Of a DNA stretch of 28,110 bases, positions 9,130-28,110 are shown one piece after another. The DNA lies in the IMG/VR virus record IMGVR_UViG_651053022_000001; one strand, written 5' to 3'. Source of the stretch: a virus. Its lineage: Duplodnaviria; Heunggongvirae; Uroviricota; Caudoviricetes. The translations under genes were made by a program, and so were the position numbers. Below the pieces are notes generated by a model. That model saw only the letters and a list, made by a program, of their open reading frames with translations, was not told the origin of the DNA and did not search any database. The first letter of the stretch is position 1; each line of letters opens with the position of its first letter.

Positions 9130-9670
9130 CCTGAGTCTGCCCGGTTGTTTCTTCAGTCTGTATATCGCCTACAGGGTGATAACGATAAATCGTCGATGTG
9201 CCAATGCCGTAAATTATTGCCAGTTGTTTTCTGTCGTGCCCGTTTTTGATTAGCCTTGCTATTTGCTCATGCTGTTCTTTTGTCAGCTTCGGTCGACGTC
9301 CGCCTGTGCGCCCCCTTGCGCGCGCTGCCGCCAGCCCGGCCAGTGTACGTTCAACAATTAATTCACGTTCCATTTCAGCCAGGGCACCCATCACGTGGAA
9401 GAAAAAACGCCCCATTGGAGAAGATGTGTCTATGCTGTCGGTCAGACTGCGAAAATTAATCCCTCGCTCCCGTAGTTCCCCGACGAGAGAAATCAGATGT
9501 TTCATGCTTCGCCCGAGGCGATCCAGTTTCCAGACAACCAGCGTGTCACCTTTTTGAAGGCGCTTTAAAGCGCGTTTTAATCCCGGTCGGTCTGTCTTTG
9601 TCCCGCTTAATTTATCTTCAAATATTTGTTCACATCCTGCACAAACAAGAGCGTTTCGTTGCAGGTCTTT
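9113..9670 (-). pseudogene. Gin/Pin/Cin/Hin-family serine DNA invertase, 5'-truncated
   Basis: Hand translation upstream of the track ORF gives KDLQRNALVCAGCEQIFEDKLSGTKTDRPGLKRALKRLQKGDTLVVWKLDRLGRSMKHLISLVGELRERGINFRSLTDSIDTSSPMGRFFFHVMGALAEMERELIVERTLAGLAAARARGR..., near-identical to Gin as I recall it from the equivalent of residue 16 onward. An in-frame TAA at 9671-9673 removes the first ~15 residues including the catalytic serine. Confidence 0.85.
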
Positions 9671-10608: not shown

Positions 10609-10637
10609 GCCGGGGCATAAATTTTTTATGCCCCGGC
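10609..10637. repeat. perfect 29-bp palindrome (13-bp arms, 3-nt centre)
   Basis: gccggggcataaa ttt tttatgccccggc, about 100 bp upstream of the 174-aa ORF. Confidence 0.7.
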
Positions 10638-10736
10638 GAAGCAGCAGACAAGCGAAGCGCGTCAGCGATACGGCACCTTGCCGACCATACTTCATAAGTG
10701 CAAAATACGAGCAAAGAAATCAATGGAGGCTGTCTT

Positions 10737-11261: not shown

Positions 11262-11292
11262 AAAGGACAGCCCCATCACGGGGCTGTTTTTT
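11261..11292. terminator. bidirectional terminator shared by the 174-aa ORF and portal gene Q
   Basis: Stem cagcccc / ggggctg with A-run before and tttttt after; the Q stop codon lies in the loop. Confidence 0.6.
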
Positions 11293-14073: not shown

Positions 14074-14227
14074 TGCTCCCCCTGAGTAATTACAGGAAGA
14101 TTACCCGCGCGCGAAACTGTTCTCCTTAACCCTCTGTTCTGACTGTTTTCTTACAACAAAAGCCCTTTGTATCAGCCTGTTACGCTTTGCCATCATGACT
14201 GAAGAACCAGTCAGAGGGGCAAAAACT

Positions 14228-15064
14228 ATGGCTAATGAAAAAAAGACATCCCGCAAAAAGTTTCGCGTGGCTGTCTCCGGATCAACTGTTGATGGCCGTG
14301 AAATCAGTCCGGTGCATCTGCGTGAAGCCGCCGAGAACTTCAACCCGGATGTTTACGCTGCCCGCGTGAACGTTGAGCACTATCTCTCGCCATGTCCGTC
14401 AAGCGAATTTTCCGCAATGGGCGATGTCACCGCACTGAGTACGGAAGACATTACGGAAGGTCCGCTGGCCGGACGTACTGCGCTGTATGCAGAAATCGAA
14501 CCGACCGAGCGCATGAAGCAGCTTGTCGCTGACGGCAAGAAAATCTATTCCAGTATCGAACTGCACCCGCAGTTCTCCGTTAACGGGCGCGCCTATCTGG
14601 TCGGGCTGGCGATGACCGACACCCCGGCAAGCCTGGGCACTGAGCGCCTGAAATTCACGGCACAGCAACGTCAGGCGGTGATGACGTTCAACAGTATCCA
14701 GGGTGAAGCACCGCTTATCTCCGAAGCCATCGAGTCTGAAATCATCGAAATGGCAGAACAACGCCAGGAAGAAGGCACCCAGTGGTTTAACCGCGTAATG
14801 GGGATTATTGGTCGTGGCCGCAAAGCGGATGACGCCAGTTTCTCCCGAATTCAGGAAGCGGTGGAAGGCGTTGCAACGTCACAGGCCGACATTATCGACC
14901 GTTTTAATGTGCTGGAAACCCGCCATCAGCAGGACCGCCAGAAAATCACGTCACTGACCACAGAGCTGACAGCATTGAAGGAAAAACTGCGCACGCAGGA
15001 CGGCGATCCGCAGAACCGCTTCACCGCAACGGGCGCAGCCTCCGACCAGCTGGCTGACTTCTGA
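14228..15064 (+). CDS. O: capsid scaffolding protein (P2 gpO-like)
   Basis: MANEKKTSRKKFRVAVSGSTVDGREISPVHL... resembles the gpO N-terminus; start at ATG 14228 with SD; track ORF starts at 14195. Confidence 0.88.
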   Translation: MANEKKTSRKKFRVAVSGSTVDGREISPVHLREAAENFNPDVYAARVNVEHYLSPCPSSEFSAMGDVTALSTEDITEGPLAGRTALYAEIEPTERMKQLVADGKKIYSSIELHPQFSVNGRAYLVGLAMTDTPASLGTERLKFTAQQRQAVMTFNSIQGEAPLISEAIESEIIEMAEQRQEEGTQWFNRVMGIIGRGRKADDASFSRIQEAVEGVATSQADIIDRFNVLETRHQQDRQKITSLTTELTALKEKLRTQDGDPQNRFTATGAASDQLADF

Positions 15065-15087
15065 TAAGACAAAGGAGCAAATTTTTT

Positions 15088-16140
15088 ATGAATCTGGTGA
15101 TGTCAGATATTACCCGCAACAAGCTGGGTTGCTATATGGCGCAGCAGGCGTCGCTTAACAATATCCCGGTATCTGCACTGGTATCGCGATTTACCGTGGA
15201 ACCCGCGGTGCAGCAGCGTTTTGAAAACGCCTCAAAGGAAAGTACCGAATTTACGAAAAGAATTAACGTGATCGGCGTGACCGACCAGAAAGGCGAAAAA
15301 ATCCTCCTGGACACCACCGGGCCAATTGCGCGCACGAATAGCAGTTATGACGGCATCAAACGCCGTAACCCGAATAACGTGATCGATATGAAGTCTCGTC
15401 AGTACCAGTGCGAACAGGTGAACTACGATACCTTTATTTCGTACCCACAGCTTGATACCTGGGCGGCCCACAGCGATTTTCAGTCCCGTATCAGTACACA
15501 GATCGCCCGGCAGGTAGCGCTTGATCGCATCATGATTGGCTTTAACGGCACATCCCACGCCTACGAGTCTGATTTTCACACCAACAAGCTGCTTCAGGAC
15601 GTTAACGTGGGCTGGCTGGAGCACATCAGAACCGATGCCAGCGAGCGCGTAATGAATGACGTGACGCTGACCTCCCGCAACATGGACAACACTGTGGCGC
15701 ACGCGGGTAAGTATGCGAATGCCGATGCTCTGGTACAGGATGCGCGCTCATCCCTGCTGGATGAATGGCACAAGGAAGCTGACGACCTCGCGGTGATTAT
15801 GGGGCGCAACCTGTTTAACTCGCTGCGTCTGCCCGTGCTGAACAGCATCAGCGGCCAGAATCCCAATGCGGAATTACTTGCCGGGCAGCTCATCCTGTCA
15901 TCGCGCACCATTGGCGGGCTGGGCGTGTTCCTTGCGCCGTTCTTCCCGGATGCAACGATGCTTATCACCTCGTTCAACAACCTGTCGATTTACTGGCAGA
16001 AAGGTTCAATGCGTCGCCTGATGAAAGACGAGCCGGAATACAACCGCATCGCCACCTACCAGTCCATCAATGACGCTTATGTCGTTGAAGACTATGGCAA
16101 GTGCGCGATGGTCACTGGCCTGAAGTTCGCCGACAGCTAA
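15088..16140 (+). CDS. N: major capsid protein (P2 gpN-like)
   Basis: 350 aa with several blocks matching gpN as I recall it (FTVEP, GEKI, PFFPDATMLIT, VVEDY); AAGGAG SD. Confidence 0.93.
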   Translation: MNLVMSDITRNKLGCYMAQQASLNNIPVSALVSRFTVEPAVQQRFENASKESTEFTKRINVIGVTDQKGEKILLDTTGPIARTNSSYDGIKRRNPNNVIDMKSRQYQCEQVNYDTFISYPQLDTWAAHSDFQSRISTQIARQVALDRIMIGFNGTSHAYESDFHTNKLLQDVNVGWLEHIRTDASERVMNDVTLTSRNMDNTVAHAGKYANADALVQDARSSLLDEWHKEADDLAVIMGRNLFNSLRLPVLNSISGQNPNAELLAGQLILSSRTIGGLGVFLAPFFPDATMLITSFNNLSIYWQKGSMRRLMKDEPEYNRIATYQSINDAYVVEDYGKCAMVTGLKFADS

Positions 16141-16185
16141 TCAACTCACGGCGGGCATCATGCCCGCCTGTAACGGAGAGAAAAA

Positions 16186-16986
16186 ATGATTACTCCTGCA
16201 CAACAACACTGGCAGAACGTGATGGCACAGCGCGCAGGCCGGGCGAATGAAGGTGTGGACCACGCCGCGTGTACCGCGCATGAAGAGGTGCTGTATCGTC
16301 TGCGTCTGGCACAGGCCAGGCTAAAGGCCATACAGGCCAGAAGCGCGAAAGCCGCCATCAAAAAAGAGTTGTTGCCGGACTTTTCCGGCTGGATTGAGGG
16401 AACGCTGGAGGCTGACGGCGGGCAACAGGACGAAGTAATTGCCACGCTGATGGTGTGGGCGATTGACTGCGGCGATCTTCCGCTGGCGCTGCGTATTGGT
16501 GCATATGTGGTCCGTCACAACCTCATCATGCCGGATAACTTTGGCCGTACTGCTGCCACGGTACTGACCGAAGAAATCTGCAACCCGGTACTGACGCAGG
16601 CTGGGACGGATGCCGACGCGGATTTATCCGCCTTTATCGAACCACTGGACACACTTTGGGAAATTATCGCCAACCAGGACATGCCGGACGAAGTGCGCGC
16701 CAAATTATGCAAGGCGTGTGCCTTTGCCCGTCGTGGCCTGACCGATGCAGACAACATGGCCTCATCACTGAAGCTGCTGCGCGAAGCGATGCACCTGAAC
16801 CCGAACGCAGGTGTGAAACGCGAGATTGCAACCCTTTCCCGCGCCCTGAAAAAAGCCGATTCCGCAGCCGAACCAGAAGACGCCAGCGCACAGCAGGCGC
16901 AGGACGAAAGCAGCAAAAGTAAAAAGACAACGCGGAAGCCTGCAACACGAAAAACCACCGCGACGCAGAAGGCAAAGCGCGGTTAA
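16186..16986 (+). CDS. M: terminase small (endonuclease) subunit (P2 gpM-like)
   Basis: 266 aa; DMPDEVRAKL block and Lys/Arg-rich C-terminus as in gpM. Confidence 0.9.
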   Translation: MITPAQQHWQNVMAQRAGRANEGVDHAACTAHEEVLYRLRLAQARLKAIQARSAKAAIKKELLPDFSGWIEGTLEADGGQQDEVIATLMVWAIDCGDLPLALRIGAYVVRHNLIMPDNFGRTAATVLTEEICNPVLTQAGTDADADLSAFIEPLDTLWEIIANQDMPDEVRAKLCKACAFARRGLTDADNMASSLKLLREAMHLNPNAGVKREIATLSRALKKADSAAEPEDASAQQAQDESSKSKKTTRKPATRKTTATQKAKRG

Positions 16987-17087
16987 CGACTGACCCCGTC
17001 AGCGGGCGGCGTGCGCGGTGTTCCGGTTTGACTCCGTGACCGTTTACACCGCGCACCCACCGCCCGATTTTTTCAGGAGTGAACCCC

Positions 17088-17582
17088 ATGAGTATGGTTG
17101 CCAGAACTAACCCCGGCCCCGCAGAGGACGACATCACCGACACCGATGATGGCGATACCCGTATTTCAGCGGGTGCATTCTGGCCGGATATTGTGCTGCG
17201 CGAGCTGCGTCTGGCGGTACGACTGCCGGGCCGCGTGACCACCTCCCGCCTGCTGCATACCGCCACCGGGGCCATAGCACACGTTACCCGCGAGCTGGAA
17301 GCATGGCAGCAGGAACAACAGGCGGCTGGCTATCAGACGCTGGCCGATGTTCCGGCCCCTGTAATTAACGGAGAAAGCGTCAATCTCTGGCACTGGCGCA
17401 ATGCTGTTTATACCGCCACACGCGCCCTGATTCTGGAGCGTTACCGCGATGCGGACACAACGGACAAGGGCGACCGCCGGGCGGACGCACTGGATATACA
17501 GACATCGGATTTGTGGCGCGATGTGAGCTGGGCCATCTCTGACATTCTGGGACGACCGCGAATGTTTGCGGAGCTGTGCTGA
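17088..17582 (+). CDS. L: head completion/stabilisation protein (P2 gpL-like)
   Basis: 164 aa; CAGGAG SD 8 nt upstream of ATG 17088; stop overlaps the X start. Confidence 0.85.
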   Translation: MSMVARTNPGPAEDDITDTDDGDTRISAGAFWPDIVLRELRLAVRLPGRVTTSRLLHTATGAIAHVTRELEAWQQEQQAAGYQTLADVPAPVINGESVNLWHWRNAVYTATRALILERYRDADTTDKGDRRADALDIQTSDLWRDVSWAISDILGRPRMFAELC

Positions 17583-17782
17583 TGAAAGTGAAGGCACTGG
17601 AAGGCGACACCGTGGATTCGCTCTGTTTCCGGTACTACGGCACGACACAGGGCGTCACCGAAAAGGTGCTGGATGCCAACCCCGGACTCTGTCAGCAGGT
17701 ATTTCTGGACGCCGGGCAGGAAGTGGAGATGCCGGAGCCGGAGAAGAAGAAACGAGAAATGATTCAGTTGTGGGGGGAGTAG
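17582..17782 (+). CDS. X: tail protein X (P2 gpX-like, LysM-type)
   Basis: 66 aa, MKVKALEGDTVDSLCFRYYG... similar to gpX. Confidence 0.8.
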   Translation: MKVKALEGDTVDSLCFRYYGTTQGVTEKVLDANPGLCQQVFLDAGQEVEMPEPEKKKREMIQLWGE

Positions 17783-17784
17783 CA

Positions 17785-18108
17785 GTGAGCACCATTCAAA
17801 CAGGGATCACAGAGCAGGTTATTGCGTGGCTCTTTGACCACCTGCCAACGGTGTATGCAGTAGGCGCGGCGGTCAGCATTTCCGCGCTGATGAGTCTTTA
17901 TGACGGACGAACACTGGTTCAGACCGTAACGGGATCGCTGGCGTGCGGCGTTCTTGCCATGGCCGTGGCCGGGTCGCTGCGCTTCTTCGGGATCCCTGAG
18001 GATGCAGTGACGTTTTTTGGTGCCTCAATCGGTTTTATGGGCGCAGAGAAAGCACGCGACAAGGTTATTGCAATATTTGATCGCAGGGTGAAGGAGAGGA
18101 ACGAATGA
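17785..18108 (+). CDS. putative holin
   Basis: 107-aa membrane protein with hydrophobic segments and a charged C-terminus; GTG start with GGGGGAG SD; directly upstream of and overlapping the endolysin start. Confidence 0.6.
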   Translation: MSTIQTGITEQVIAWLFDHLPTVYAVGAAVSISALMSLYDGRTLVQTVTGSLACGVLAMAVAGSLRFFGIPEDAVTFFGASIGFMGAEKARDKVIAIFDRRVKERNE

Positions 18109-18497
18109 GCAACACATTTAAATTCAGCAGCCGGAGCGAAAAGAATTTGCAGGGTGTAAATCCTGATCTGGTGAAAGTGACCCGACGGGCGCTGGAAATC
18201 TCGGAAGTGGATTTTGGTATCACCGAAGGATTGCGCAGTCGTTATCGTCAGAAGCAGCTCGTGACCACAGGCAAGAGCCAGACCATGAACAGTCGCCATC
18301 TCACAGGGCATGCCGTGGATGTTGTGGCTTATGTCGGCAACCAGGTGTCATGGGAATGGCCGCTGTACGAAAAAATCGCAGCAGCATTCAGACAGGCCAG
18401 CCAGGAACTGAATATTCCGGTGGAATGGGGCGGCGACTGGAAGACCCTGAAAGACGGACCGCATTTTCAGTTACCACACGGAGCCTATCCGGCATGA
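18105..18497 (+). CDS. endolysin, peptidase M15 family (zinc L-Ala-D-Glu / D-Ala-D-Ala peptidase type)
   Basis: 130 aa with SRHLTGHAVD and DGPHFQ zinc-ligand style motifs; this differs from the lysozyme-type gpK of P2. Confidence 0.8.
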   Translation: MSNTFKFSSRSEKNLQGVNPDLVKVTRRALEISEVDFGITEGLRSRYRQKQLVTTGKSQTMNSRHLTGHAVDVVAYVGNQVSWEWPLYEKIAAAFRQASQELNIPVEWGGDWKTLKDGPHFQLPHGAYPA

Positions 18498-18889
18498 AGC
18501 TCTGGCCCACGCTTGGCGTCGCTTTCCTTCTGATTACATCCATGCGTCTGTCGTGGTCGCTGGGCCGGGAGAACGCCAGAAACGAAGCGCAGGCCAGCAC
18601 CCTGAAAAGTACCGTCGACACACTGAATATCATCAGCGCCGGGGTACAGGATATGCAGCAGGTGCTGGCTCAGCTCCGCGCGGAAAATCAGCAACGCAAT
18701 CAGGACGGAGAGGTAAGACGTGAACAGCTACGCAACGATATTGCAAAAGATGAATGCGCCCACGCTTTGCCTGACGCTCGTTTTACTGACAGGTTGCGCA
18801 GGCACGCAGAACGCGCCAGGGCCAGCGCCGTCAGTCCGGCTTATACCGCAGACGCTGACCATGCCGGTAACGCCTCCCCCCTTCCCTGA
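18494..18889 (+). CDS. i-spanin (Rz / LysB-like)
   Basis: N-terminal TM anchor (LWPTLGVAFLLITSM) and a coiled-coil periplasmic region; start overlaps the endolysin stop. Confidence 0.7.
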   Translation: MKLWPTLGVAFLLITSMRLSWSLGRENARNEAQASTLKSTVDTLNIISAGVQDMQQVLAQLRAENQQRNQDGEVRREQLRNDIAKDECAHALPDARFTDRLRRHAERARASAVSPAYTADADHAGNASPLP

Positions 18890-19031
18890 CCCACCCACAT
18901 GGGGAAACCTCGGAATATGGGGCGACCGCCTTCTGGATGCACTGGAAACCTGTAACGCGGATAAACGGGCCATTGCTGAACTGGATAAGAGAATAGCCGA
19001 ACTGACACACCAGACGGGAGTAACACAATGA
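18750..19031 (+). CDS. o-spanin (Rz1 / LysC-like lipoprotein), overlapped architecture
   Basis: Lipobox LLTGC after a short signal peptide, Pro-rich; begins inside the i-spanin gene in another frame and extends past it. GTG 18720 is an alternative start. Confidence 0.65.
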   Translation: MNAPTLCLTLVLLTGCAGTQNAPGPAPSVRLIPQTLTMPVTPPPFPDPPTWGNLGIWGDRLLDALETCNADKRAIAELDKRIAELTHQTGVTQ

Positions 19032-21799
19032 CCAGTAAGAACTTTGCACTGATTACAGCCATGACACAGGCTGAACTGACTCAAAAGGTGAATGAACATC
19101 TTGCGAAAGGGTGGCATCTTCAGGGGGAGACGCGGGTTGCCTACGAACCCGGCACCCCGTGGTATCTAATGCAGGCAATGGTGGCCGATGGCACTACAGA
19201 CATCTCACCTGATTCCCCCCAGCACGGCAGCGTGCCGGAGTGGTATTACGTGGTGGTACTTGCTGGTCAATCCAATGCCATGTCATATGGTGAGGGAATG
19301 CCGCTGCCGGATTCTTACGATGCGCCCCACCCACGCATTAAGCAACTGGCCCGTCGCAACACAGTGACTCCCGGTGGTAAAGCATGCGCATTTAACGACA
19401 TCATTCCGGCAGACCACTGCCTGCATGATGTTCAGGATATGAGCGCACTGAATCACCCGAATGCAGACCTGAGCAAAGGGCAGTATGGCTGTGTCGGACA
19501 GGGCTTGCATATTGCCAAACGCCTGTTGCCTTACATTCCACAGAATGCCGGGATTTTACTGGTTCCATGCTGTCGTGGTGGTTCGGCATTCACCCAGGGC
19601 GCGGAGGGGACATTCAGCGAGTCCACAGGAGCCAGTCAGGATTCGGCTCGCTGGGGTGTGGGTAAACCTTTATATCAGGACCTGATTTTGCGCACGAAGG
19701 CCGCATTGCAGAAAAACCCAAAAAACATGCTGCTGGCCGTATGCTGGATGCAGGGCGAATTTGACATGAGCGCCGCTACGTACTCACAGCAACCTCCGCT
19801 GTTTACGGCCATGCTGAAACAGTTTCGTGCGGACATTACCGAGTTTAACACGCAGTGTCATGGAGGCAGAGCGGCAAGTGTGCCATGGATTTGTGGTGAC
19901 ACGACGTATTACTGGAAAAACACCTACGGCACGCAGTACGACACCATTTACGGGGCGTACAAAAACAGGGAGAGCGACAACGTTTTCTTTGTGCCGTTCC
20001 TGACCGATGGTAGTGGCAACAATACCTCCACCAACGCACCAACGGAAGATCCGGATGCTGCAAGTGAGGGAACCCTGATGCAGGCGATTGCAGCAGAAGG
20101 TGATGTGGTCGTCAGTGGTGCAACTGAGCCGGAGTGGTACTACGTCATCGTACTGGCCGGGCAATCCAATGCCATGGCTTACGGTGAAGGGCTTCCGCTT
20201 CCGGATTCATACGATGCGCCCCATCCGCGCATTAAGCAACTGGCCCGTCGTAACACAGTGACTCCCGGTGGTGAAGTATGCGTATTTAACGACATCATTC
20301 CTGCTGACCATTGTCTGCATGATGTTCAGGATATGAGTACGATTAACCATCCCCGGGCTGACCTGAGCAAAGGGCAGTACGGCTGTGTCGGACAGGGCTT
20401 ACATATTGCCAAAAAACTGCTTCCGTATATCCCTAATAATGCGGGGATCCTGCTGGTACCATGCTGTCGTGGTGGTTCGGCATTCACCCAGGGCACGGAG
20501 GGGACATTCAGCGAGTCCACGGGGGCCAGTCAGGATTCGGCTCGCTGGGGAGTGGGTAAGCCGTTATATCAGGATCTGCTTTTCCGCACGAAGGCAGCAT
20601 TGCAGAAAAACCCGAAAAACGTTTTGCTGGCGATATGCTGGATGCAGGGGGAATTCGATATGACGAATGCCAGTTACGCCCAGCAGCCAGCAGCATTTCT
20701 TGCAATGGTACAGCAGTTCCGTGCTGACCTTGCCGGGCTGGCGGCGCAGTGTCACGGTGGAAGTCCGGCATCAGTCCCCTGGATTTGTGGCGACACGACA
20801 TACGCGTGGAAACAAGAACACGGTACGCAATATGAAGTGGTATATGGTGCATATAAAGGTAAAGAATCCCAGCAGATTTATTTTGTTCCCTTTATGACCG
20901 ATGGTAGCGGAGTTAATACACCGACAAACAACCCGTCAGAAGATCCTGATATTGCCGGGTCTGGTTATTACGGTTCGGCATCCCGAACGAACAAAAACTG
21001 GGTATCATCAAATCGCCAGACGCATTTCAGCTCATGGGCGCGTCGTGGCATTATTCCCGATCGTATGGCAACCGCTATTCTGAACGTAGCCGGTCGCACC
21101 TTAGCCTTCATCAGTGGTAAGGCACCGGAAATCAAACCCTCGCCCGGCGGCGACACGCCATCGGGGCCGTCTGAAGATGCATCCGTACGCACAATCTCCC
21201 TGTTGCCGACAGCCGGAGATGCTGCTGCGCAGGGCTGGAGCATTAAGAATGGCGGAATTCAGTTGTCAGATGGTGTATTTAAGATCACCAAGCAGAGCAA
21301 TAAAGCCTGGTCCCTGACGCGCCCGGTGGATGACGCAGTCTCCCTGCTGACACGGGGTGGCAGACTGAGCTGTAAGTTTCGACTGTCAGGCGCACTGACC
21401 AACAATCAGTTCGGTCTGGGAATTTATCTGTATACCGATGTAGCGTTACCTGACGTCGTGGCGATGACCGGGACTGGTAACCCGTTCCTGATGTCGTTCT
21501 TCACCCAGACCACAGACGGCAAACTGAATCTGATGCATCACAAGAAAGCAGGAAACACAAAGTTGGGCGAGTTCGGGAATTACAGTAACGACTGGCAGAC
21601 GCTGGAGCTGGTGTTCACCGCCGGCAGTGCCACGGTTACTCCGAAACTGAATGGAGTGGCTGGCCCGGCATTCCAGGTCATAAAAGACAGTCTGACACTG
21701 GGGCTGAATGCGCTGACGTTAACTGATATCACTAAAAATGCCGCGTACGGCGTCGATATCGGCAGCCTGGTGCTGGAAATCAATAATCCCGCAGCATAA
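19028..21799 (+). CDS. NanS-p-like prophage O-acetylesterase: DUF1737-type N-terminus, two tandem SGNH/sialate O-acetylesterase domains, C-terminal putative carbohydrate-binding domain
   Basis: 923 aa; the GQSNAMxYGEG esterase block occurs twice (about residues 70-345 and 365-640) with highly similar sequence. Confidence 0.8.
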   Translation: MTSKNFALITAMTQAELTQKVNEHLAKGWHLQGETRVAYEPGTPWYLMQAMVADGTTDISPDSPQHGSVPEWYYVVVLAGQSNAMSYGEGMPLPDSYDAPHPRIKQLARRNTVTPGGKACAFNDIIPADHCLHDVQDMSALNHPNADLSKGQYGCVGQGLHIAKRLLPYIPQNAGILLVPCCRGGSAFTQGAEGTFSESTGASQDSARWGVGKPLYQDLILRTKAALQKNPKNMLLAVCWMQGEFDMSAATYSQQPPLFTAMLKQFRADITEFNTQCHGGRAASVPWICGDTTYYWKNTYGTQYDTIYGAYKNRESDNVFFVPFLTDGSGNNTSTNAPTEDPDAASEGTLMQAIAAEGDVVVSGATEPEWYYVIVLAGQSNAMAYGEGLPLPDSYDAPHPRIKQLARRNTVTPGGEVCVFNDIIPADHCLHDVQDMSTINHPRADLSKGQYGCVGQGLHIAKKLLPYIPNNAGILLVPCCRGGSAFTQGTEGTFSESTGASQDSARWGVGKPLYQDLLFRTKAALQKNPKNVLLAICWMQGEFDMTNASYAQQPAAFLAMVQQFRADLAGLAAQCHGGSPASVPWICGDTTYAWKQEHGTQYEVVYGAYKGKESQQIYFVPFMTDGSGVNTPTNNPSEDPDIAGSGYYGSASRTNKNWVSSNRQTHFSSWARRGIIPDRMATAILNVAGRTLAFISGKAPEIKPSPGGDTPSGPSEDASVRTISLLPTAGDAAAQGWSIKNGGIQLSDGVFKITKQSNKAWSLTRPVDDAVSLLTRGGRLSCKFRLSGALTNNQFGLGIYLYTDVALPDVVAMTGTGNPFLMSFFTQTTDGKLNLMHHKKAGNTKLGEFGNYSNDWQTLELVFTAGSATVTPKLNGVAGPAFQVIKDSLTLGLNALTLTDITKNAAYGVDIGSLVLEINNPAA
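19233..20965 (+). repeat. in-frame tandem duplication (two units of ~840 bp, period 894 bp) inside the esterase gene
   Basis: Long stretches read almost identically at 19233-20070 and 20127-20965 (for example gagtggta..gcattcacccagggc..gaggggacattcagcgagtccac); by eye roughly 85-90 percent identity. Confidence 0.85.
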
Positions 21800-21822
21800 G
21801 GAAGAGCAGGAGAGCAAAACAG

Positions 21823-22290
21823 ATGCTTAAGACAAACAGTCTGCGAGAGTCCATGCTTCATGGGTGTCGGTGGTGCCAGGCTAATCCCGAGAAATTCACC
21901 ATTTTCGTGGAGAGCGGCAACATTGAAACGACCGGAGAAGCGCCCTCGTTTGTTTACCGCTATCAGATGGTGATGTTTGTCATGGATTACGCCGGAGAGC
22001 TGGACGACCTCACGCTGCCGCTGCTGGCGTGGTTATCCGAAAATCAGCCACAGTTGTTGCTCAATCCGGAGCGTAATCAGGACATCAAATTTTCTGCCGT
22101 TATCAATGACGATGACAGCGCCGATCTCCTGTTTACGCTCCCCCTGCGGGAACGCGTTCGCATCACGCGCAACAGTCAGGGCACACCGCAGGCAGAACAC
22201 CTGCCGGAGCCAAAACCCCGTCTGCCTTCTTCCGAAGGCGACTGGTCGCATGTATTCCAGGATGTGACGTGGGGTGAAAGCGATGGATAA
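21823..22290 (+). CDS. R: tail completion protein (P2 gpR-like)
   Basis: 155 aa, same size and position as P2 gpR. Confidence 0.85.
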   Translation: MLKTNSLRESMLHGCRWCQANPEKFTIFVESGNIETTGEAPSFVYRYQMVMFVMDYAGELDDLTLPLLAWLSENQPQLLLNPERNQDIKFSAVINDDDSADLLFTLPLRERVRITRNSQGTPQAEHLPEPKPRLPSSEGDWSHVFQDVTWGESDG

Positions 22291-22918
22291 GGCATTCACC
22301 CGCGTGGATGAAACCTTTGAGGCTATCCGCGACAGCCTGAATCAGCAGGCCATCAATAACATCGCCAGAAAGCTGGCACAGGATTTACGTCGCGCCCAGC
22401 AGGCACGTATCCGGTCACAAAAAGCGCCGGACGGGACCGAATGGACACCACGCAGACGCCGCGTAACCCGGATACAGGAGCGCATTCGCTTTATCTGGAA
22501 TAACGAAGCACGCACGCTGAAAAACTGGCATCACGACACAGGGAAATACGGGCGAACCATTACCGGGTGGGATGAGGATAAAAACAATATCCGCACGTTT
22601 TACCGGGATGACATCGACCGTTTTCTGGAAATACGCACCCGGCGCATCAACCAGGACAGCACAAAGCGCGTCCCCATGTTCGTAAAACTGCGCACCGCCC
22701 GCTACCTGAAAGCCCGTGCAGATGCCTCCGGTGTGACGGTGGGTTACAGCGGCGTGGCCGCACGTATTGCACGCGTTCATCAGTTCGGTGAGCGCGATCA
22801 GGTTGCGCCGGGCATTTTCACCGATTACCCGGTACGTGAGCTGTTGGGTATCAGCCAGGCAGATGAGCGCCTGATTTATAACACGGTGCTGGGCCGGATT
22901 GCGGAGGCTGTACGGTGA
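22283..22918 (+). CDS. S: tail completion / virion morphogenesis protein (P2 gpS family)
   Basis: 211 aa; start overlaps the R stop; longer than P2 gpS but fits the family by position and sequence style. Confidence 0.72.
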   Translation: MDKAFTRVDETFEAIRDSLNQQAINNIARKLAQDLRRAQQARIRSQKAPDGTEWTPRRRRVTRIQERIRFIWNNEARTLKNWHHDTGKYGRTITGWDEDKNNIRTFYRDDIDRFLEIRTRRINQDSTKRVPMFVKLRTARYLKARADASGVTVGYSGVAARIARVHQFGERDQVAPGIFTDYPVRELLGISQADERLIYNTVLGRIAEAVR

Positions 22919-23496
22919 GCGCAGAACTCATGCGACTGCTGAGCAACATCATCCGCACCGGGATCATCTCTGAAGTTGATGAGAAGTCCTGGCGCGTGCG
23001 CGTTCGCAGCGGCGAACTGGAAACAGGCTGGTTGCGCTGGAACACCACGCGCGCGGGAGCCTTCAATGTGTGGCTGCCGCCATCACCAGGCGAACAGGTG
23101 GTAATTGCCTGCATTGGCGGCAACCCGGAAACCGCCATGATAATTGGCAGCCTGTGGAGTGATGCCAGTCCGGCCCCCGGCAAAAGCCTGAAAGAAATCG
23201 TGGTCAGCGCGCCGGATGGCGCGGTGTTCCGCTACGACGCAGACGCTGGCGCACTGAGCGCCAGCGGCATGAAAACAGCCACCCTGCAGGCATCCGTCAG
23301 CGTGACACTGGATACGCCCGTCGTGGAATGCACAAACCTTCTGAGAACGGCGACGCTTGACGTCACAAAAGAGGGAAAGATGAGCGGCAATATCACGCAC
23401 AGCGGCGGCAATTTCACCTCAAACGGCATTACCGTGCATACGCATAAGCACGGTGGCGTTAAAGGTGGCAGCGATTCGACAGGAGGCCCGCAGTGA
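22915..23496 (+). CDS. V: baseplate assembly protein V / spike (P2 gpV-like)
   Basis: 193 aa; overlaps the S stop. Confidence 0.85.
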   Translation: MSAELMRLLSNIIRTGIISEVDEKSWRVRVRSGELETGWLRWNTTRAGAFNVWLPPSPGEQVVIACIGGNPETAMIIGSLWSDASPAPGKSLKEIVVSAPDGAVFRYDADAGALSASGMKTATLQASVSVTLDTPVVECTNLLRTATLDVTKEGKMSGNITHSGGNFTSNGITVHTHKHGGVKGGSDSTGGPQ

Positions 23497-23843
23497 CAAC
23501 CCGCTACACAGGAATGAACCCGGACGGGACGGGAAACCTGAACGATATGGAGCACCTGAAACAGTCAGTCAGGGACATCCTGATCACCCCGCTGGCAAGC
23601 CGGGTTATGCGACGGGAATATGGCAGCCTTGTGCCTGATTTGATTGACGAACCCATGAATAACACCACGCGTCTGCAATGCATGAGTGCTGCCGTGATTG
23701 CGCTGACACGATGGGAACCCCGCATTGCCCTGGACGCCATCGACGTTGTCTGGAAGGCAGGAGGCCGCGCCGGGGTGACGCTGTCGGGCACTGTCATGCA
23801 GACCATGCAGAATGTTGAATTAACCATCACGCTGAGAGAGTAA
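23493..23843 (+). CDS. W: baseplate protein W (gp25-like)
   Basis: 116 aa; overlaps the V stop. Confidence 0.88.
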   Translation: MTTRYTGMNPDGTGNLNDMEHLKQSVRDILITPLASRVMRREYGSLVPDLIDEPMNNTTRLQCMSAAVIALTRWEPRIALDAIDVVWKAGGRAGVTLSGTVMQTMQNVELTITLRE

Positions 23844-23846
23844 ATC

Positions 23847-24743
23847 ATGCCTGCTGTTGATCTTTCCCAGTTACCGGAACCCGCCATCATCGCGGAGCCT
23901 GATTTTGAGGCAATTCTGGCTGACACAAAGGCCATGATGATTGCGTCCTATCCTGCCGAACAGCGTGAAGCCGTCTCCGCCGCGCTGGAGCTGGAATCAG
24001 AACCCCTGAACGTTATCGCTCAAACCATGTCGTTTCGTGAAATGCTGTTACGCCAGCGGGTTAACGAGGGCGCACGCGCCTGCATGTTAAGCCACGGTTC
24101 AGGGACAAACCTGGACAACCTCGCGGGCAATATGAACACAAAGCGCCTGGTTATCACTCCGGCAACGGATACCACCGACGCGGTGATGGAGAGCGACACC
24201 TCGCTGAGACTGCGGGCGCAGCGGGCGTATGACGGCCTGAGTGTTGCTGGCCCGTCAGGTGCATACGAGTATTTTGCACGCAGCGCCAGCGGTCTGGTGC
24301 GTGATGCGCGGGCCATCAGCCCGTCTCCGGCCTGTGTGACGGTTTCCATTCTGTCCACTGAAGGCGACGGCACAGCAACGGAGGCGTTGCTTAATACCGT
24401 TCGCGCCGTTCTGAATGCAGAGGATACCCGCCCGGTGGCCGACCGACTGACCGTACAGAGCGCCAGCATCGTGACATGGCGGCTGAATGCAAAACTGTAC
24501 TTTTACCCCGGCCCGGAATCCGAACCTATTCTGGCTGCGGCTGAATCGTCGTTCAGGAAGTGGCTGGCTGAGCAGGGGCTTATTGGTCAGGACGTGGCGT
24601 TGTCAGCCATTGCTGCCGCACTTCATGTGCACGGCGTGCAACGCGTGGAGATAATCGAACCCACACAGAATATGGCCATCAGCGACATACAGGCGGCGCG
24701 CTGTGAGTCATTCACCATCAGCGAAGGTGGGCGTAATGAGTAA
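23847..24743 (+). CDS. J: baseplate assembly protein J
   Basis: 298 aa, P2 gpJ-like in size and position. Confidence 0.9.
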   Translation: MPAVDLSQLPEPAIIAEPDFEAILADTKAMMIASYPAEQREAVSAALELESEPLNVIAQTMSFREMLLRQRVNEGARACMLSHGSGTNLDNLAGNMNTKRLVITPATDTTDAVMESDTSLRLRAQRAYDGLSVAGPSGAYEYFARSASGLVRDARAISPSPACVTVSILSTEGDGTATEALLNTVRAVLNAEDTRPVADRLTVQSASIVTWRLNAKLYFYPGPESEPILAAAESSFRKWLAEQGLIGQDVALSAIAAALHVHGVQRVEIIEPTQNMAISDIQAARCESFTISEGGRNE

Positions 24744-25266
24744 TTCACTGTTACCGCCATCAGCCAGCAATTTCATGCGTTGCGCCGAAGCTGTCGGAGC
24801 GCGCATTACAGACATCCCGGTAGACCTCAACACGCTGTGGTCACCGGACACCTGCCCGGTGCATCTGCTGCCTTATCTCGCCTGGGCATTTTCCGTTGAC
24901 CGCTGGGATCGCAACTGGCCGGAAGAGACAAAGCGACAGGTGATTCGTGATGCATGGCTGATACACCGACACAAAGGGACCATCAGCGCACTGCGCCGGG
25001 CCATTGAGCCGCTGGGATACCTCATTCGCGTGTCTGAGTGGTGGGAGTTCGGCGGAGAACCGGGAACATTTACCGTTGAAGTCGGCACGCTGGACAGTGG
25101 CGTGACGGAGGAAATGTATCTGGAAATGGAGCGGTTGATTGCTGATGCCCGCCCGGTCAGCCGCCACATGACAGGGCTGAATATCATTCAGGAGATTCAG
25201 GGAGATATTTTCGCGGCGGCAGCAACTTACGACGGCGAAGTCATTACCATTTATCCGGACGATTAA
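24736..25266 (+). CDS. I: baseplate / tail protein I
   Basis: 176 aa from ATG 24736, which overlaps the J stop; same length as P2 gpI. Confidence 0.85.
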   Translation: MSNSLLPPSASNFMRCAEAVGARITDIPVDLNTLWSPDTCPVHLLPYLAWAFSVDRWDRNWPEETKRQVIRDAWLIHRHKGTISALRRAIEPLGYLIRVSEWWEFGGEPGTFTVEVGTLDSGVTEEMYLEMERLIADARPVSRHMTGLNIIQEIQGDIFAAAATYDGEVITIYPDD

Positions 25267-25268
25267 GC

Positions 25269-26504
25269 ATGAGTACCACAACACGTAAATTTAAAACCGT
25301 TATCACCGATACGGGTGCCAAAAAATTAGCTCAGGCAGCCGCGCCAGATGGTAAGCCTGTCCGCCTGACTCATATGGCCGTGGGCGACGGTGGCGGCACG
25401 TTGCCCACACCAGACAGTAAGCAGACCCGTCTGGTGCATGAGGTGTGGCGACATACTGTTAATCGCGTCATCCTGGACGCAACACATCAGAACCGCATTA
25501 TTGCGGAGCTGGTTATTCCTCCTGAAACGGGCGGATTCTGGATCCGGGAAATTGGTGTATTTGATGAGCACGGCGATTTAATCGCGGTGGGCAATACTGC
25601 CGAAAGTTACAAGCCAGCCGTTGCCGAAGGGTCCGGTCGTGCACAAACATTTCGCACCATTCTGACCGTATCCAGCACTGCCACCGTGGTGCTTACCGTG
25701 GATAACACCATGGTGATGGCCACAGTGGATTACGTGGATGACAAACTGAAAGAGCATGAACAGTCACGACGTCACCCGGACGCCTCGCTGACCGCAAAAG
25801 GCTTTGTTCAACTCAGTAGCGCCACTAACAGCGTGTCTGAAACGCAGGCTGCAACGCCGAAAGCAGTAAAGGCCGCGTATGACCTTGCTAACGGTAAATA
25901 TACTGCGCAGGATGCCAGCACGACGCGAAAAGGCCTTGTCCAGCTCAGTAGCGCCACCAACAGCGTGTCTGAAACGCAGGCTGCAACGCCGAAAGCAGTA
26001 AAGGCCGCGTATGACCTTGCTAACGCAAAATATACCGCTCAGGACGCCACGACGGCACAAAAAGGGATAGTCCAGCTCAGTAGTGCCACCAACAGCACGT
26101 CTGAAACACTGGCCGCGACATCGAAAGCTGTTAAGGCGGTAATGGATGAAACGAACAAGAAAGCGCCCTTAAATAGTCCTGCACTGACCGGAACGCCAAC
26201 AACACCAACTGCGCGACAGGGAACGAATAATACCCAAATCGCAAGCACGGCTTTCGTTATGGCTGCGATTGCCGCCCTTGTAGATTCGTCACCTGATGCA
26301 CTGAACACGCTGAACGAGCTGGCTGCGGCGCTGGGCAACGACCCGAATTTTGCGACCACCATGACTAACGCGCTTGCGGGTAAGCAACCGAAAGATGCCA
26401 CCCTGACGGCGCTGGCCGGACTTACTACTGCGGCAGGCAAGTTTCCGTATTTTACGGGGAATGATGTCGCCAGCCTGGCAACCCTGACAAAAGTCATTTA
26501 CTAA
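25269..26504 (+). CDS. H: tail fibre protein H, N-terminal (constant) portion only; probably C-terminally truncated
   Basis: 411 aa versus about 669 aa for P2 H; contains three 44-aa tail-fibre repeats; stop codon is immediately followed by AT-rich non-phage DNA and gnd. Confidence 0.85.
   Translation: MSTTTRKFKTVITDTGAKKLAQAAAPDGKPVRLTHMAVGDGGGTLPTPDSKQTRLVHEVWRHTVNRVILDATHQNRIIAELVIPPETGGFWIREIGVFDEHGDLIAVGNTAESYKPAVAEGSGRAQTFRTILTVSSTATVVLTVDNTMVMATVDYVDDKLKEHEQSRRHPDASLTAKGFVQLSSATNSVSETQAATPKAVKAAYDLANGKYTAQDASTTRKGLVQLSSATNSVSETQAATPKAVKAAYDLANAKYTAQDATTAQKGIVQLSSATNSTSETLAATSKAVKAVMDETNKKAPLNSPALTGTPTTPTARQGTNNTQIASTAFVMAAIAALVDSSPDALNTLNELAAALGNDPNFATTMTNALAGKQPKDATLTALAGLTTAAGKFPYFTGNDVASLATLTKVIY
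25797..26192 (+). repeat. three tandem 132-bp (44-codon) repeats inside H
   Basis: Repeated unit encoding G-x-VQLSSATNS-x-SET-x-AAT-x-KAVKA..., with near-identical DNA at 25800, 25932 and 26064. Confidence 0.75.
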
Positions 26505-26703
26505 AGCATTTCGATGGCATATAAGGAGTATTACGCGCTACATATTACGGAAACCAATTCTTTCTTATAAAAACTATAGAAAAATTACATCCGAACTGGT
26601 AAAGTGATTAAATAAAGTCCTAATTTTACTACTGAAATGGTATCTTTATTTAAAGATCTTTGCTTTATATACCAATTTTTTAACGCCCTGACAGGAGTAA
26701 ACA

Positions 26704-28110
26704 ATGTCAAAGCAACAGATCGGCGTCGTCGGTATGGCAGTGATGGGGCGCAACCTTGCGCTCAACATCGAAAGCCGTGGTTATACCGTCTCTATTTTCA
26801 ACCGTTCCCGTGAAAAAACGGAAGAAGTGATTGCCGAAAATCCAGGCAAAAAACTGGTTCCTTACTATACGGTGAAAGAGTTTGTTGAATCTCTGGAAAC
26901 GCCTCGTCGCATCCTGTTAATGGTGAAAGCAGGTGCAGGCACGGATGCTGCTATTGATTCCCTTAAGCCGTACCTCGATAAAGGTGACATCATCATTGAT
27001 GGTGGTAACACCTTCTTCCAGGACACTATTCGTCGTAATCGTGAGCTTTCTGCAGAAGGCTTTAACTTCATCGGTACTGGTGTTTCTGGCGGTGAAGAAG
27101 GCGCGCTGAAAGGACCTTCCATTATGCCTGGTGGCCAGAAAGAAGCCTATGAACTGGTTGCGCCGATCCTGACCAAAATCGCCGCAGTGGCTGAAGACGG
27201 GGAGCCATGCGTTACCTATATTGGTGCCGATGGCGCAGGCCACTATGTGAAGATGGTTCACAACGGTATTGAATACGGTGATATGCAGCTGATTGCTGAA
27301 GCCTATTCTCTGCTTAAAGGTGGCCTGAACCTCACCAACGAAGAACTGGCGCAGACCTTTACCGAGTGGAATAACGGTGAACTGAGCAGCTACCTGATTG
27401 ACATTACCAAAGATATCTTCACCAAAAAAGATGAAGACGGTAACTACCTGGTTGATGTGATTCTGGATGAAGCTGCAAACAAAGGTACGGGTAAATGGAC
27501 CAGCCAGAGCGCGCTGGATCTCGGCGAACCGCTGTCGCTGATTACCGAGTCTGTGTTTGCACGTTATATCTCTTCTCTGAAAGATCAGCGCGTTGCCGCG
27601 TCTAAAGTTCTCTCTGGCCCGCAAGCGCAGCGAGCAGGCGACAAAGCTGAGTTTATCGAGAAGGTTCGTCGTGCGCTGTATCTGGGCAAAATCGTTTCTT
27701 ACGCTCAGGGCTTCTCTCAGTTGCGTGCTGCGTCTGAAGAATACAACTGGGATCTGAACTACGGCGAAATCGCGAAGATTTTCCGTGCTGGCTGCATCAT
27801 CCGTGCGCAGTTCCTGCAGAAAATCACCGATGCATACGCCGAAAATCCGCAGATCGCTAACCTGCTGCTGGCTCCGTACTTTAAGCAAATCGCCGATGAC
27901 TATCAGCAGGCGCTGCGCGATGTCGTTGCTTATGCAGTACAGAACGGTATCCCGGTTCCGACCTTCGCCGCTGCGGTTGCCTATTATGACAGCTACCGTG
28001 CCGCTGTTCTGCCTGCAAACCTGATCCAGGCACAGCGTGACTATTTCGGTGCACATACTTATAAGCGCATCGATAAAGAAGGTGTGTTCCATACCGAATG
28101 GCTGGATTAA
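26704..28110 (+). CDS. gnd: 6-phosphogluconate dehydrogenase, decarboxylating; complete 468 aa
   Basis: Full-length ORF with AGGAG SD; sequence matches Gnd as I recall it ([16 protein letters not shown]-binding N-terminus). Confidence 0.96.

Follow-up and report, generated by a model that had tools for sequence, protein, structure and literature searches.

Introduction

The closest described relatives of the gene analysed here are the NanS-p esterases of Stx and other lambdoid phages (the 933W L0105/Z1466 family and phi24B gp84/vb_24B_21), which share its combination of a DUF1737 domain, a NanS-like SASA/SGNH domain and a lectin-like jelly-roll domain. DUF1737 is the capsid-binding domain of phi24B NanS-p, for which binding to the capsid as a hexamer has been reported. 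The chromosomal NanS (YjhS) of E. coli (3PT5) has a homologous catalytic domain with the same blocks, GQSNA, RGGSAF, MQGEFD and xHFS, but is a single-domain protein without DUF1737 and lectin-like domains. According to the catalytic block definitions adopted here (PMC10792757, PMC9487903), the catalytic acid/base sits in block V, which in 3PT5 corresponds to R-x-SHFS-303. A further relative is encoded near serS by the P88-like prophage of E. coli ST131, where it is annotated as a 625/626-aa 'DUF6645 domain-containing protein' (JJ1886 P423_RS04670, WP_023363135.1). The gene family, its location in P2-like prophages and its likely function are already known and are represented thousands of times in databases; carriage of this esterase by P2-like prophages is barely discussed in the literature searched.

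In this study, we analysed a 28,110-nucleotide stretch of viral DNA (the window), in which a sequence-only reading had singled out a NanS-p-like gene with an internally repeated catalytic domain. The window runs from base 1 of serS to the gnd stop codon and was therefore probably cut from an annotated assembly.

Results

The esterase ORF (19028..21799, + strand) encodes 923 aa and its start overlaps, as ATGA, the stop codon of lysC (18720..19031, + strand), an Rz1-like o-spanin gene identified by Pfam (LysC, E = 1.6e-13) and by the JJ1886 annotation. The next late-operon gene encodes the tail completion protein gpR (21823..22290, + strand; P2_Phage_GpR, E = 1.4e-38). The capsid gene N, L, X, the holin, the M15 endolysin and LysC lie upstream, and GpR, S and V downstream. 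The gene order N-M-L-X-holin-endolysin-lysB-lysC-R-S-V-W-J-I-H, together with P2-family Pfam domains, identifies a P2-like late operon (Peduoviridae, P88/Xuanwuvirus-like), and the window is 96-98% identical to P88-like phages at the DNA level. The reference phage P88 has no gene between lysB/lysC and R. These data support the assignment of the esterase gene as a moron of a P2-type late operon. It does not occupy the usual lambdoid location downstream of Q/stx and upstream of holin S, a feature that is contextual and does not define the family.

The sequence-only reading had correctly placed the gene between the spanins and R, but it had taken this position to be out of the ordinary and had proposed a survey of P2-like prophages for nanS-p. 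The gene is in fact already common in this slot: of 5426 complete E. coli genomes, 376, with ST131 notable among them, have the identical lysC-to-esterase junction, always followed by a 625/626-aa single-domain gene, and deposited P88-like phages carry the gene at the same place. Likewise, the assembly collection has 10,919 blocks with the GpR protein of the window, taken as a neighbouring control, and a 625/626-aa esterase lies upstream of it in 6/6 places shown.

Pfam analysis of the 923-aa protein detected DUF1737 (aa 4-53; 19037..19186, + strand; PF08410, 28.3 bits against a cut-off of 24), SASA as two stretches, and DUF6645 (aa 774-884). DUF1737 is the P2-prophage allele and is only about 27% identical to the N-terminus of the lambdoid allele. 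The C-terminal lectin-like jelly-roll domain (aa 728-920; 21209..21787, + strand) was recovered by comparison with 6YP6, the C-terminal domain of NanS-p (E = 2.9e-29), by PF20350 (E = 3.3e-19) and by Foldseek (TMt 0.84). A complete SASA/SGNH domain, holding block I (the GQSN serine), block II, block III (QGE) and block V (His), is contained within aa 366-686, a region that covers residues 16-332 of NanS 3PT5 (E = 9e-122); Foldseek comparison of an AlphaFold2 model with 3PT5 gave 57% identity. The three domains of the NanS-p family are present, and sequence and fold comparison support a NanS-p-type esterase, as had been proposed for this 923-aa product, with the architecture DUF1737-SASA-DUF6645. 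The domain annotation that had been suggested as a check likewise recovers the esterase fold, both by Pfam and by the matches to NanS. By homology to NanS and NanS-p, the predicted activity would be that of an esterase acting on Neu5,9Ac2 or on mucin sialic acids.

Comparison of the gene with itself, also suggested at the outset, gave one diagonal only, at an offset of 894 nt (298 codons), in frame, and the reading frame is intact throughout. Module 1 (aa 70-348; 19235..20071, + strand) belongs to the recipient P2-type gene described below and carries blocks I-III, namely Ser82 within GQSNA, RGGSAF at position 183 and MQGEFD at 241. It is followed by an 894-nt insert (aa 349-646; 20072..20965, + strand) composed of a lambdoid DUF1737 linker tail, TLMQAIAAEGDVVVSGATE, and of SASA module 2, which again holds blocks I-III (Ser380). 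Block V comes only after the insert, in a single segment (aa 647-690, YYGSASRTNKNWVSSNRQTHFSS...AILNVAG; 20966..21097, + strand) that includes the C-terminal helix and aligns to NanS residues ~284-332. The in-frame repeat claimed by the sequence-only reading is thus real, as are the two GQSN motifs (GQSNA at aa 80 and aa 378), but the repeated unit is not a whole SGNH domain: blocks I-III are doubled, whereas block V (THFSS) and the C-terminal helix are single.

This arrangement bears directly on whether, as suggested, the two copies might both be active. The protein has a single HFSS, at aa 666, and His666 (nt 21023-21025) is its sole block V histidine. Module 1 stops at the equivalent of NanS residue ~283; it has no block V histidine of its own, whereas copy 2 plus block V aligns over the whole of 3PT5. 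Because block V with its catalytic histidine is present once, it could complete no more than one esterase module, for which the second, being contiguous with it, is the simplest candidate; the first copy would then be dead weight or, at best, a module retaining binding only. It should be noted that the AlphaFold2 model of the full protein is of only moderate quality, with a pLDDT of 71.7 and a pTM of 0.43; its fold assignments agree with those above. Its pLDDT falls below 50 at aa 632-671, so the model is not informative as to which module receives block V.

The two copies (aa 70-348 and aa 368-646) share 80.6% of their residues and 77.3% of their nucleotides, a divergence of ~19-23% that exceeds the 10-15% first estimated. 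DNA identity between them drops from ~90% to ~55% along the repeated unit, with a dS of ~1.0 and a dN/dS of 0.14. This level of dS is the distance between two old paralogues, as the parental origins of the pieces make clear. Nucleotides 1-1044 of the gene match the ST131 P2-type gene, and likewise locus L004, at 1044/1044 positions, inside a block 99.99% identical to JJ1886, and nucleotides 1939-2772 match the ST131 P2-type gene at 833/834. The insert is identical, at 894/894 positions, to nt 124-1017 of a nanS-p paralogue that sits in a lambdoid prophage context in ST131 strain 4/1-1 and many other strains, and it matches the metagenome loci L002 and L003 at 890/894. At the protein level, P0003 accounts for aa 1-348 at 100% identity, residues 42-339 of P0006 for aa 349-646 at 99-100%, and P0001 for aa 647-923 at 99.6-100%; removal of aa 349-646 restores P0001 save for four alignment columns (one gap and three substitutions). 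Copy 1 thus has 100% identity to the P2-type allele and copy 2 to the lambdoid allele; the copies are not each other's closest relatives and do not come from the same source gene. Donor and recipient occur together in ST131 genomes; in strain 4/1-1, for instance, they lie at 1.454 Mb and 0.964 Mb. On these matches, the 923-aa gene appears to be the ordinary ST131 single-domain esterase gene plus 894 nt of a sister gene from another prophage. Since the second copy is identical to a paralogue extant elsewhere in ST131 genomes, the event is of essentially zero age, contrary to the initial view that the duplication was not recent.

Apart from the 894-nt insert, which the recipient gene (JJ1886 P423_RS04670) lacks, the window matches that gene and its surroundings exactly or almost exactly, in the flanks, N-terminus, module 1, block V and C-terminus. 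The left joint, GGA|ACC (20071|20072), is illegitimate and without microhomology. It falls exactly at the nucleotide where the two paralogues turn identical, a coincidence that random illegitimate recombination does not predict and that counts against the explanation favoured below. The right-hand joint is homologous: the crossover lies within a stretch of 52 nt (20966..21017, + strand) identical in donor and recipient by sequence comparison, which forms the start of a ~750-nt region nearly identical in both paralogues, and the window carries recipient bases at the next three diagnostic sites (21018, 21073 and 21112). The window runs unbroken through this ~750-nt repeat, which breaks short-read assemblies; the phage record ON470623 ends inside the gene. 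An exact run of 606 nt is already common to both paralogues; it points to an earlier exchange between them, and because of it the two esterases have the same lectin-like domain.

The junction was then sought elsewhere. A 36-mer spanning it had no match in GTDB representative genomes, JGI metagenomes or IMG/VR; no complete E. coli genome and no phage record spans the junction, and the 923-aa protein is not on record in a search of 5.8 billion protein clusters or in exact-protein look-ups. An exhaustive phmmer search of 1.84 billion proteins returned 457 representatives, among which the 10 long or multi-stretch hits were scanned with Pfam; none of these 10 has two SASA domains. Long homologues from the first search were of other kinds: P0044 (912 aa) is not a duplication but is fused by read-through to an ORF downstream of it, and P0003, P0060 and P0069 are fusions with tail-fibre parts. 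The odd public record CP050216.1 (6.6 Mb) has the same gene abruptly fused to a tail-fibre collar. These searches indicate that the 923-aa variant is a one-off singleton and not an evolved double enzyme.

The esterase gene is not the only irregularity of the window. At 9666..9668, a non-native blunt junction with a 3-nt overlap brings the invertase gene, of which the first 44 nt are missing, up against the interior of a DUF4760 gene, and none of the complete E. coli genomes has sequence running across it. At 26495..26496, a second non-native blunt junction, without microhomology, leads from midway through tail-fibre gene H into the final 111 nt of an O25b glycosyltransferase gene, which is followed by gnd. 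The junction-specific proteins of both sites are on no record. Apart from the breakpoints, only 3 bases differ from ST131 genomes over the ~25.6 kb compared, and the blocks, which match JJ1886 or strain 4/1-1 at 99.96-100%, meet in blunt joints within genes. With respect to JJ1886 the blocks are rearranged, and neither the early region (int, C, cox, A) nor the invertible segment is present, so the window does not hold an intact P2-like prophage. The order of the blocks would imply two nested inversions, one of 18.9 kb and one of ~1.3 Mb (0.958-2.261 Mb). With its truncated tail fibre, cut O-antigen glycosyltransferase and lost early region, it is a prophage remnant, and the prophage is dead. 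Rearrangement by the invertase was considered and rejected: at the JJ1886 locus, the 170-nt inverted repeats occupy 26608-26777 and 29230-29399, the breakpoints, at 26574 and 29494, fall 34 nt and 95 nt beyond them, and the junctions have no gix/cix-like half-sites.

Discussion

The demonstrated anatomy, parental origins, single block V and uniqueness of the variant are best accounted for by a private and recent rearrangement, in which the esterase gene of an ST131 P88-like prophage gained 894 nt in frame from its lambdoid paralogue in the same genome. We give this reading a probability of roughly 0.55. In the simplest mechanism, the two prophage genes, present in one cell, would have undergone template switching or an illegitimate recombination anchored by homology, and the esterase event may be part of a private cluster of rearrangements in which the prophage was also cut at 9666-9668 and at 26495|26496. 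The product would read, in order, P2-type DUF1737, a SASA remnant with serine, oxyanion and QGE blocks but lacking histidine and helix, the linker, SASA blocks I-III, block V with His666, and the lectin-like domain. Because the gene forms part of the late operon, with a start that overlaps the lysC stop and with no promoter or terminator signal above shuffle expectation around it, we infer that it would be expressed late in lytic growth, by analogy with nanS-p in Stx phages. Its function would be the de-O-acetylation of sialic acids, possibly displayed on the virion via DUF1737. That the event took place in a cell is inferred, as are its mechanism and the expression and activity of the product. 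The unbroken passage through the ~750-nt repeat and the recipient bases at the three diagnostic sites speak for this rearrangement. The absence of the junction and of the 923-aa protein from every collection searched speaks against it, as do three unique blunt breakpoints within 28 kb of a near-identical ST131 background, which is atypical for clonal evolution, the dead prophage that results, and the unrecorded junction-specific proteins of the other two breakpoints.

The main competitor, which we hold to be less probable but still a serious possibility, shares this anatomy but places the origin of the chimera, and of the two other breakpoints, outside a cell, the true gene being the ordinary 625-aa form. 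Such a sequence might result from mis-assembly or mis-scaffolding with faulty gap filling from paralogous reads, from chimeric amplification, or from editing or construction. It would explain why three novel junctions and three junction-specific proteins occur in no collection searched, why the control protein with its 10,919 blocks stands beside the 625/626-aa form wherever shown (6/6), and why near-perfect JJ1886 and strain 4/1-1 blocks meet bluntly inside genes; the recipient side of the esterase joint lies exactly at a repeat edge, where contigs tend to end, and CP050216.1 offers another abrupt fusion of this gene. However, sequences without overlap are not joinable by graph-based assemblers. 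Moreover, the donor 5' region and the DUF4760 region are single-copy in ST131, and the inverted repeats of the invertible segment end 34 and 95 nt short of the tail-fibre and invertase breakpoints. Of the 6 breakpoint ends, 5 therefore do not coincide with a repeat edge. Short-read contigs ending at such edges, and gap filling with paralogous reads, are accordingly not supported as the route, though still conceivable, the recipient side of the esterase joint being the only repeat edge. The ~750-nt paralogue repeat is correctly resolved in the window, and the insert ends exactly at the homologous position, an outcome that random cutting and pasting would not give.

Much less probable is a real, functional two-headed enzyme, in which both serine modules work, block V being shared or supplied in trans within an oligomer, or in which the His-less module 1 binds O-acetyl-sialic acid beside an active esterase. 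The intact frame and the conservation of blocks I-III in both modules are compatible with it; hexameric capsid binding through DUF1737, as reported for phi24B NanS-p, would bring modules close together, and a natural sialate esterase with two catalytic modules is known, Tannerella forsythia NanS (Albers et al. 2021, cited in PMC8319020). Against it, the variant stands alone and its insert differs from the donor at no position, with no sign of inheritance or selection; the 10 Pfam-scanned hits among the 457 representatives include no two-SASA relative, two modules have one histidine and one C-terminal helix between them, and the surrounding prophage is disrupted. There is a similarly slim chance that the chimera is a real expressed allele at its birth, to which inter-prophage recombination added a His-less SASA module still able to bind O-acetylated sialic acid. 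This would place a lectin-plus-esterase pair, with a logic like that of viral haemagglutinin-esterases, on a P2-type capsid via a capsid-specific DUF1737, and would offer a natural snapshot of new domain architectures arising from paralogous morons. Finally, the initial model of an in-situ tandem duplication of the catalytic domain, since diverged by 10-15% into an old two-domain enzyme new to P2-like phages, finds agreement in the in-frame direct repeat at the 894-nt offset and the two GQSN motifs but is refuted by the parental matches of 1044/1044, 894/894 and 833/834 and hardly deserves consideration, since each copy is 99.6-100% identical to a different extant gene while the copies share only 77% of positions, a lambdoid-type linker came along with the second copy, and the single-domain gene is widespread in the same slot.

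As a discovery the locus carries little weight. It is a worked example of the fact that the divergence of repeat copies cannot date a duplication when paralogues coexist in the genome, and users of the assembly should be aware that the region holds three junctions without a counterpart elsewhere. Provided that the sequence is genuine, it is also a record of DNA passing between two ST131 prophages, one P2-like and one lambdoid, an exchange at which the 606-nt run identical in both genes already hints.

Compared with known systems, the gene resembles the lambdoid nanS-p genes as a late-operon moron adjoining the lysis genes, and its insert is a literal piece of such a gene. It differs from them in its site, which is the lysC-R interval of a P2/P88-like late operon and not the stretch from Q/stx to holin S, in its divergent DUF1737 and in its extra, incomplete SASA module. 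The recipient is the 625/626-aa esterase gene of the ST131 P88-like prophage. In-frame internal repeats are also found in other nanS-p alleles, P0005 (707 aa; standing for 52 UniRef sequences), P0007 (709 aa) and P0032 (730 aa), but these are exact self-duplications of 85-100 aa, unlike the patch from a different paralogue described here. T. forsythia NanS likewise has two esterase modules per polypeptide acting on O-acetylated sialic acids; the 923-aa protein is set apart by modules that are paralogous copies of one family, by a single shared block V and by an arrangement that is a singleton.

Domain content and genomic setting of the esterase gene

The esterase ORF (19028..21799, + strand) encodes a 923-aa protein in which Pfam detects DUF1737 (aa 4-53), SASA in two stretches and DUF6645 (aa 774-884); it was assigned to phrog_143 of PHROGs, a family whose profile has 634 positions. 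k-mer self-comparison gave a single self-diagonal at an offset of 894 nt (298 codons), confirming the in-frame repeat first recognized from the sequence. The two copies, aa 70-348 and aa 368-646, aligned without gaps at 80.6% protein identity and the repeat core was 77.3% identical at the DNA level, so that the 10-15% divergence proposed in the sequence-only reading was too low; along the repeat unit the DNA identity between copies drops from ~90% to ~55%. The placement in a P2-type late operon was equally borne out: P2-family late genes are found upstream (major capsid N, L, X, holin, M15 endolysin and LysC) and downstream (GpR, S and V), and the lysC stop overlaps the esterase start in ATGA. 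No promoter-like or terminator-like site around the esterase gene exceeded shuffle expectation, and the parent gene is predicted to be transcribed together with the late and lysis genes. By strong homology, this parent gene would encode a NanS-p-type sialate O-acetylesterase with a lectin-like C-terminal module.

P88-like phages (Xuanwuvirus, Peduoviridae) share 96-98% identity with the window. In P88 itself (L014, NC_026014.1, 18978-19116), the esterase slot between lysB/lysC and R holds a mere 137-nt spacer, and this empty slot identifies the esterase as a moron. The slot had been considered a novelty, a view that does not withstand a survey in which 376 of 5426 complete E. coli genomes proved to have the same lysC-esterase junction at ~100% identity, among them JJ1886, EC958 and other ST131 genomes, where the gene is annotated 'DUF6645 domain-containing protein'. 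Since P88 lacks the esterase and 376 of the 1039 complete genomes having this type of lysB/lysC region carry it, the gene is an optional moron of the P88-like phage group. Deposited phages, e.g. vB_EcoM-705R2, also have the esterase at lysC; in the assembly collection, 10,919 blocks contain the GpR of the window, and a 625/626-aa esterase lies directly upstream of GpR in 6/6 places shown. NanS-p has been treated for lambdoid/Stx phages and 'non-Stx prophages' (PMC10462455), and an ST131 pangenome paper describes the P2-like region with the esterase unmentioned (PMC9205054). P2 carriage of NanS-p is thus under-described in the searched literature, yet not new data.

In phi24B, the NanS-p protein gp84 was reported to be a capsid-decorating protein, docked as a hexamer via DUF1737 (2026 preprint). 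The DUF1737 N-termini of the P2-type (window 19028-19234) and lambdoid (L007 3878-4060) genes are only ~27% identical. Considered with the docking reported for phi24B, this divergence may fit adaptation to another, P2-family capsid and, by analogy, the esterase may also decorate the virions of P2-type phages.

The repeat unit is an incomplete catalytic domain

A search against solved structures matched aa 366-686 to the full E. coli NanS/YjhS (3PT5 residues 16-332, E = 9e-122) and aa 728-920 to the lectin-like C-terminal domain of phi24B NanS-p (6YP6, E = 2.9e-29), in agreement with Foldseek on an AlphaFold2 model (TMt 0.87 for NanS and 0.84 for 6YP6). The SGNH blocks of NanS were located in an active-site survey at 17-GQSNA-21, 120-RGGSAF-125, 178-MQGEFD-183 and R-x-SHFS-303 (PMC10792757). 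SGNH hydrolases carry the catalytic acid/base pair in block V, of which NanS lacks the aspartate (PMC9487903). The window protein contains two of each of the motifs GQSNA (aa 80 and 378), RGGSAF (183 and 481) and MQGEFD (241 and 539), whereas HFSS occurs only once, its histidine being position 666. Copy 1 ends at DPDAASEG, equivalent to NanS residue ~283. Two Ser-bearing N-terminal portions of ~280 residues each therefore face one block V His loop and one C-terminal helix (aa 647-690), which leaves room for no more than one complete module. The SGNH domain had been described as duplicated with both copies possibly active: the first part holds for the three doubled motifs only, and the second has no structural basis, as the block V histidine and the terminal helix are single. 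The repeat unit is an incomplete catalytic domain.

In the chimera, module 2 and the contiguous block V should constitute the one working esterase. Module 1, devoid of both catalytic base and terminal helix, is most likely inactive and possibly poorly folded; AlphaFold2 confidence was lower for module 1 and very low for aa 632-671. A binding-only function of module 1, or its complementation in trans within an oligomer, is conceivable but unlikely, and nothing speaks for either.

The second copy originates from a lambdoid paralogue

Comparison with homologous proteins resolved the 923-aa sequence into three parts. Residues 1-348 match P0003 at 100% and P0001 at 98.9% identity, two proteins of the 624/625-aa allele type with the N-terminus MTSKNF, and aa 647-923 are 99.6-100% identical to P0001. 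By contrast with these flanks, aa 349-646, linker TLMQAIAAEGDVVVSGATE included, correspond at 99.3-100% identity to residues 42-339 of P0006, a 617-aa allele with the N-terminus MAFKHYDVV and 3161 member sequences. Deletion of aa 349-646 yields P0001, bar four alignment columns (one gap and three substitutions). At the DNA level, nt 1-1044 of the gene are identical to locus L004 (1044/1044) and nt 1939-2772 match locus L001 at 833/834 positions. In many ST131 genomes, a 'SASA family carbohydrate esterase' gene contains the 894-nt insert without a single difference as its nt 124-1017. This donor gene has the neighbourhood of a classic NanS-p (Q antiterminator, tRNAs, esterase, class II holin and lysozyme) and lies ~0.49 Mb from the P2-type gene in the same genomes. 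This identity to an existing lambdoid paralogue overturns the earlier view that the duplication was not recent. The dS of ~1.0 between the copies (dN/dS 0.14) reflects the old divergence of two functional paralogues and not the time since duplication, and the insertion event is of essentially zero age.

At the left edge (20071|20072), window-donor identity stops abruptly with 0 nt overlap (GGA|ACC), whereas at the right edge it continues 52 nt past the insert. Beyond the right edge the paralogues share ~750 nt with three mismatches, at all of which the window has the base of the recipient. This shared stretch corresponds to window 20966-21780 (L005 21045-21878 versus L007 4895-5731) and includes a 606-nt exact run covering the lectin-like domain of both ST131 esterase genes, while their 5' halves are just 45-90% identical. 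Such near-identity over ~750 nt, with its exact run, suggests gene conversion between the two prophages at an earlier date. The 'partial genome' of vB_EcoM-705R2 (L015, ON470623.1, 9363-10613) stops in the esterase gene at ~nt 1251, within the repeat common to the lambdoid paralogue, indicating that short-read assemblies break there.

The two-module form was absent from the best 120 of 1466 relatives retrieved at E <= 1e-50 from 5.8 billion protein clusters; the few ~900-aa matches (P0044, P0060 and P0069) owe their length to fusion with tail-fibre parts or a downstream ORF. No two SASA modules of the NanS-p family were detected in 10 long or multi-stretch hits scanned against Pfam, taken from 457 representatives drawn from 1.84 billion proteins, and an exact look-up found the 923-aa protein on no record. 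A 36-mer over the esterase junction was absent from GTDB representatives, JGI metagenomes and IMG/VR, and in complete E. coli genomes its halves are always ~880 bp apart within a single-domain gene.

Two further breakpoints and the provenance of the window

The window, a rearranged ST131 sequence, opens with the first base of serS and closes with the gnd stop codon. These genes are ~1.3 Mb apart in ST131 genomes and here bracket a 25-kb prophage remnant. Positions 1-9668 match the JJ1886 reverse strand at 100.000%, from serS to the invertase gene without its first 44 nt; 9666-20071 match JJ1886 at 99.99%, from mid DUF4760 gene to esterase nt 1044; 20072-20965 are the insert (894/894 with the lambdoid paralogue); 20966-26495, from the remaining esterase gene to mid tail-fibre gene H, differ from JJ1886 at 2/5530 nt; and the queried part of the last block, 26496-27200, matches gnd and the end of the O25b cluster of ST131 at 100%. 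Neither the early region of the prophage (int to A) nor its invertible tail-fibre segment is present.

The junction at 9666-9668 is blunt and non-native, with a 3-nt overlap (TCT), and relative to JJ1886 is an inversion-type join of sites 18.9 kb apart. At 26495|26496, tail-fibre gene H is cut mid-gene and joined without microhomology to the 3'-terminal 111 nt of an O25b glycosyltransferase gene, after which comes gnd. Both junctions lie inside unique genes, and the DUF4760 region and the 5' region of the donor are single-copy. None of the complete E. coli genomes spans either junction, and their junction-specific ORFs are on no record. Invertase crossover sites were rejected as the cause, the inverted repeats of the invertible segment (26608-26777 and 29230-29399 of the JJ1886 locus) lying 34 and 95 nt from the breakpoints, and the breakpoints are not repeat edges. 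Two nested inversions, one of 18.9 kb within the prophage and one of ~1.3 Mb (0.958-2.261 Mb), together with the insert could yield the observed block order.

We favour a real, private rearrangement, with a probability of about 0.55. The right joint is homologous and adjoins a heterology barrier, prior exchange between the two paralogues is evident, and the window passes correctly through the repeat that interrupts short-read assemblies. An artefact or a constructed sequence is a weaker though serious contender: three singleton blunt junctions occur within 28 kb of otherwise clonal DNA, no public data set contains any of the three, both the prophage and an O-antigen gene are disrupted, and the left joint falls on the very nucleotide at which identity between the paralogues begins, a coincidence that has no explanation. 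Against this, joins without overlap are impossible for graph assemblers, and the gene boundaries at both ends of the window suggest that it was extracted from an annotated assembly. Whether real event or artefact, this is not an evolved two-domain architecture; if real, it is a structural variant, seen once, of a gene that is well represented, and if an artefact, nothing.

Relation to known esterases

Other irregular forms exist in the family. P0005 (707 aa, UniRef n=52), P0007 (709 aa) and P0032 (730 aa) have internal segments of 100, 95 and 85 residues, respectively, that are exactly duplicated in tandem and in frame, in different protein parts; the nanS-p family seems prone to internal duplication, or the gene to assembly errors. 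Fusions of the esterase with tail-fibre modules (Collar, Phage_fiber_2, prophage tail-fibre N-terminus) were observed in P0003 (L004 10001-12259, CP050216.1), P0060 and P0069. In CP050216.1, a 6.6-Mb 'E. coli' record that looks mis-joined, plasmid and T6SS genes flank the esterase.

The closest known systems are the recipient itself (the 625-aa esterase of the ST131 P2 prophage), the NanS-p proteins of lambdoid phages, the donor among them, and chromosomal NanS.
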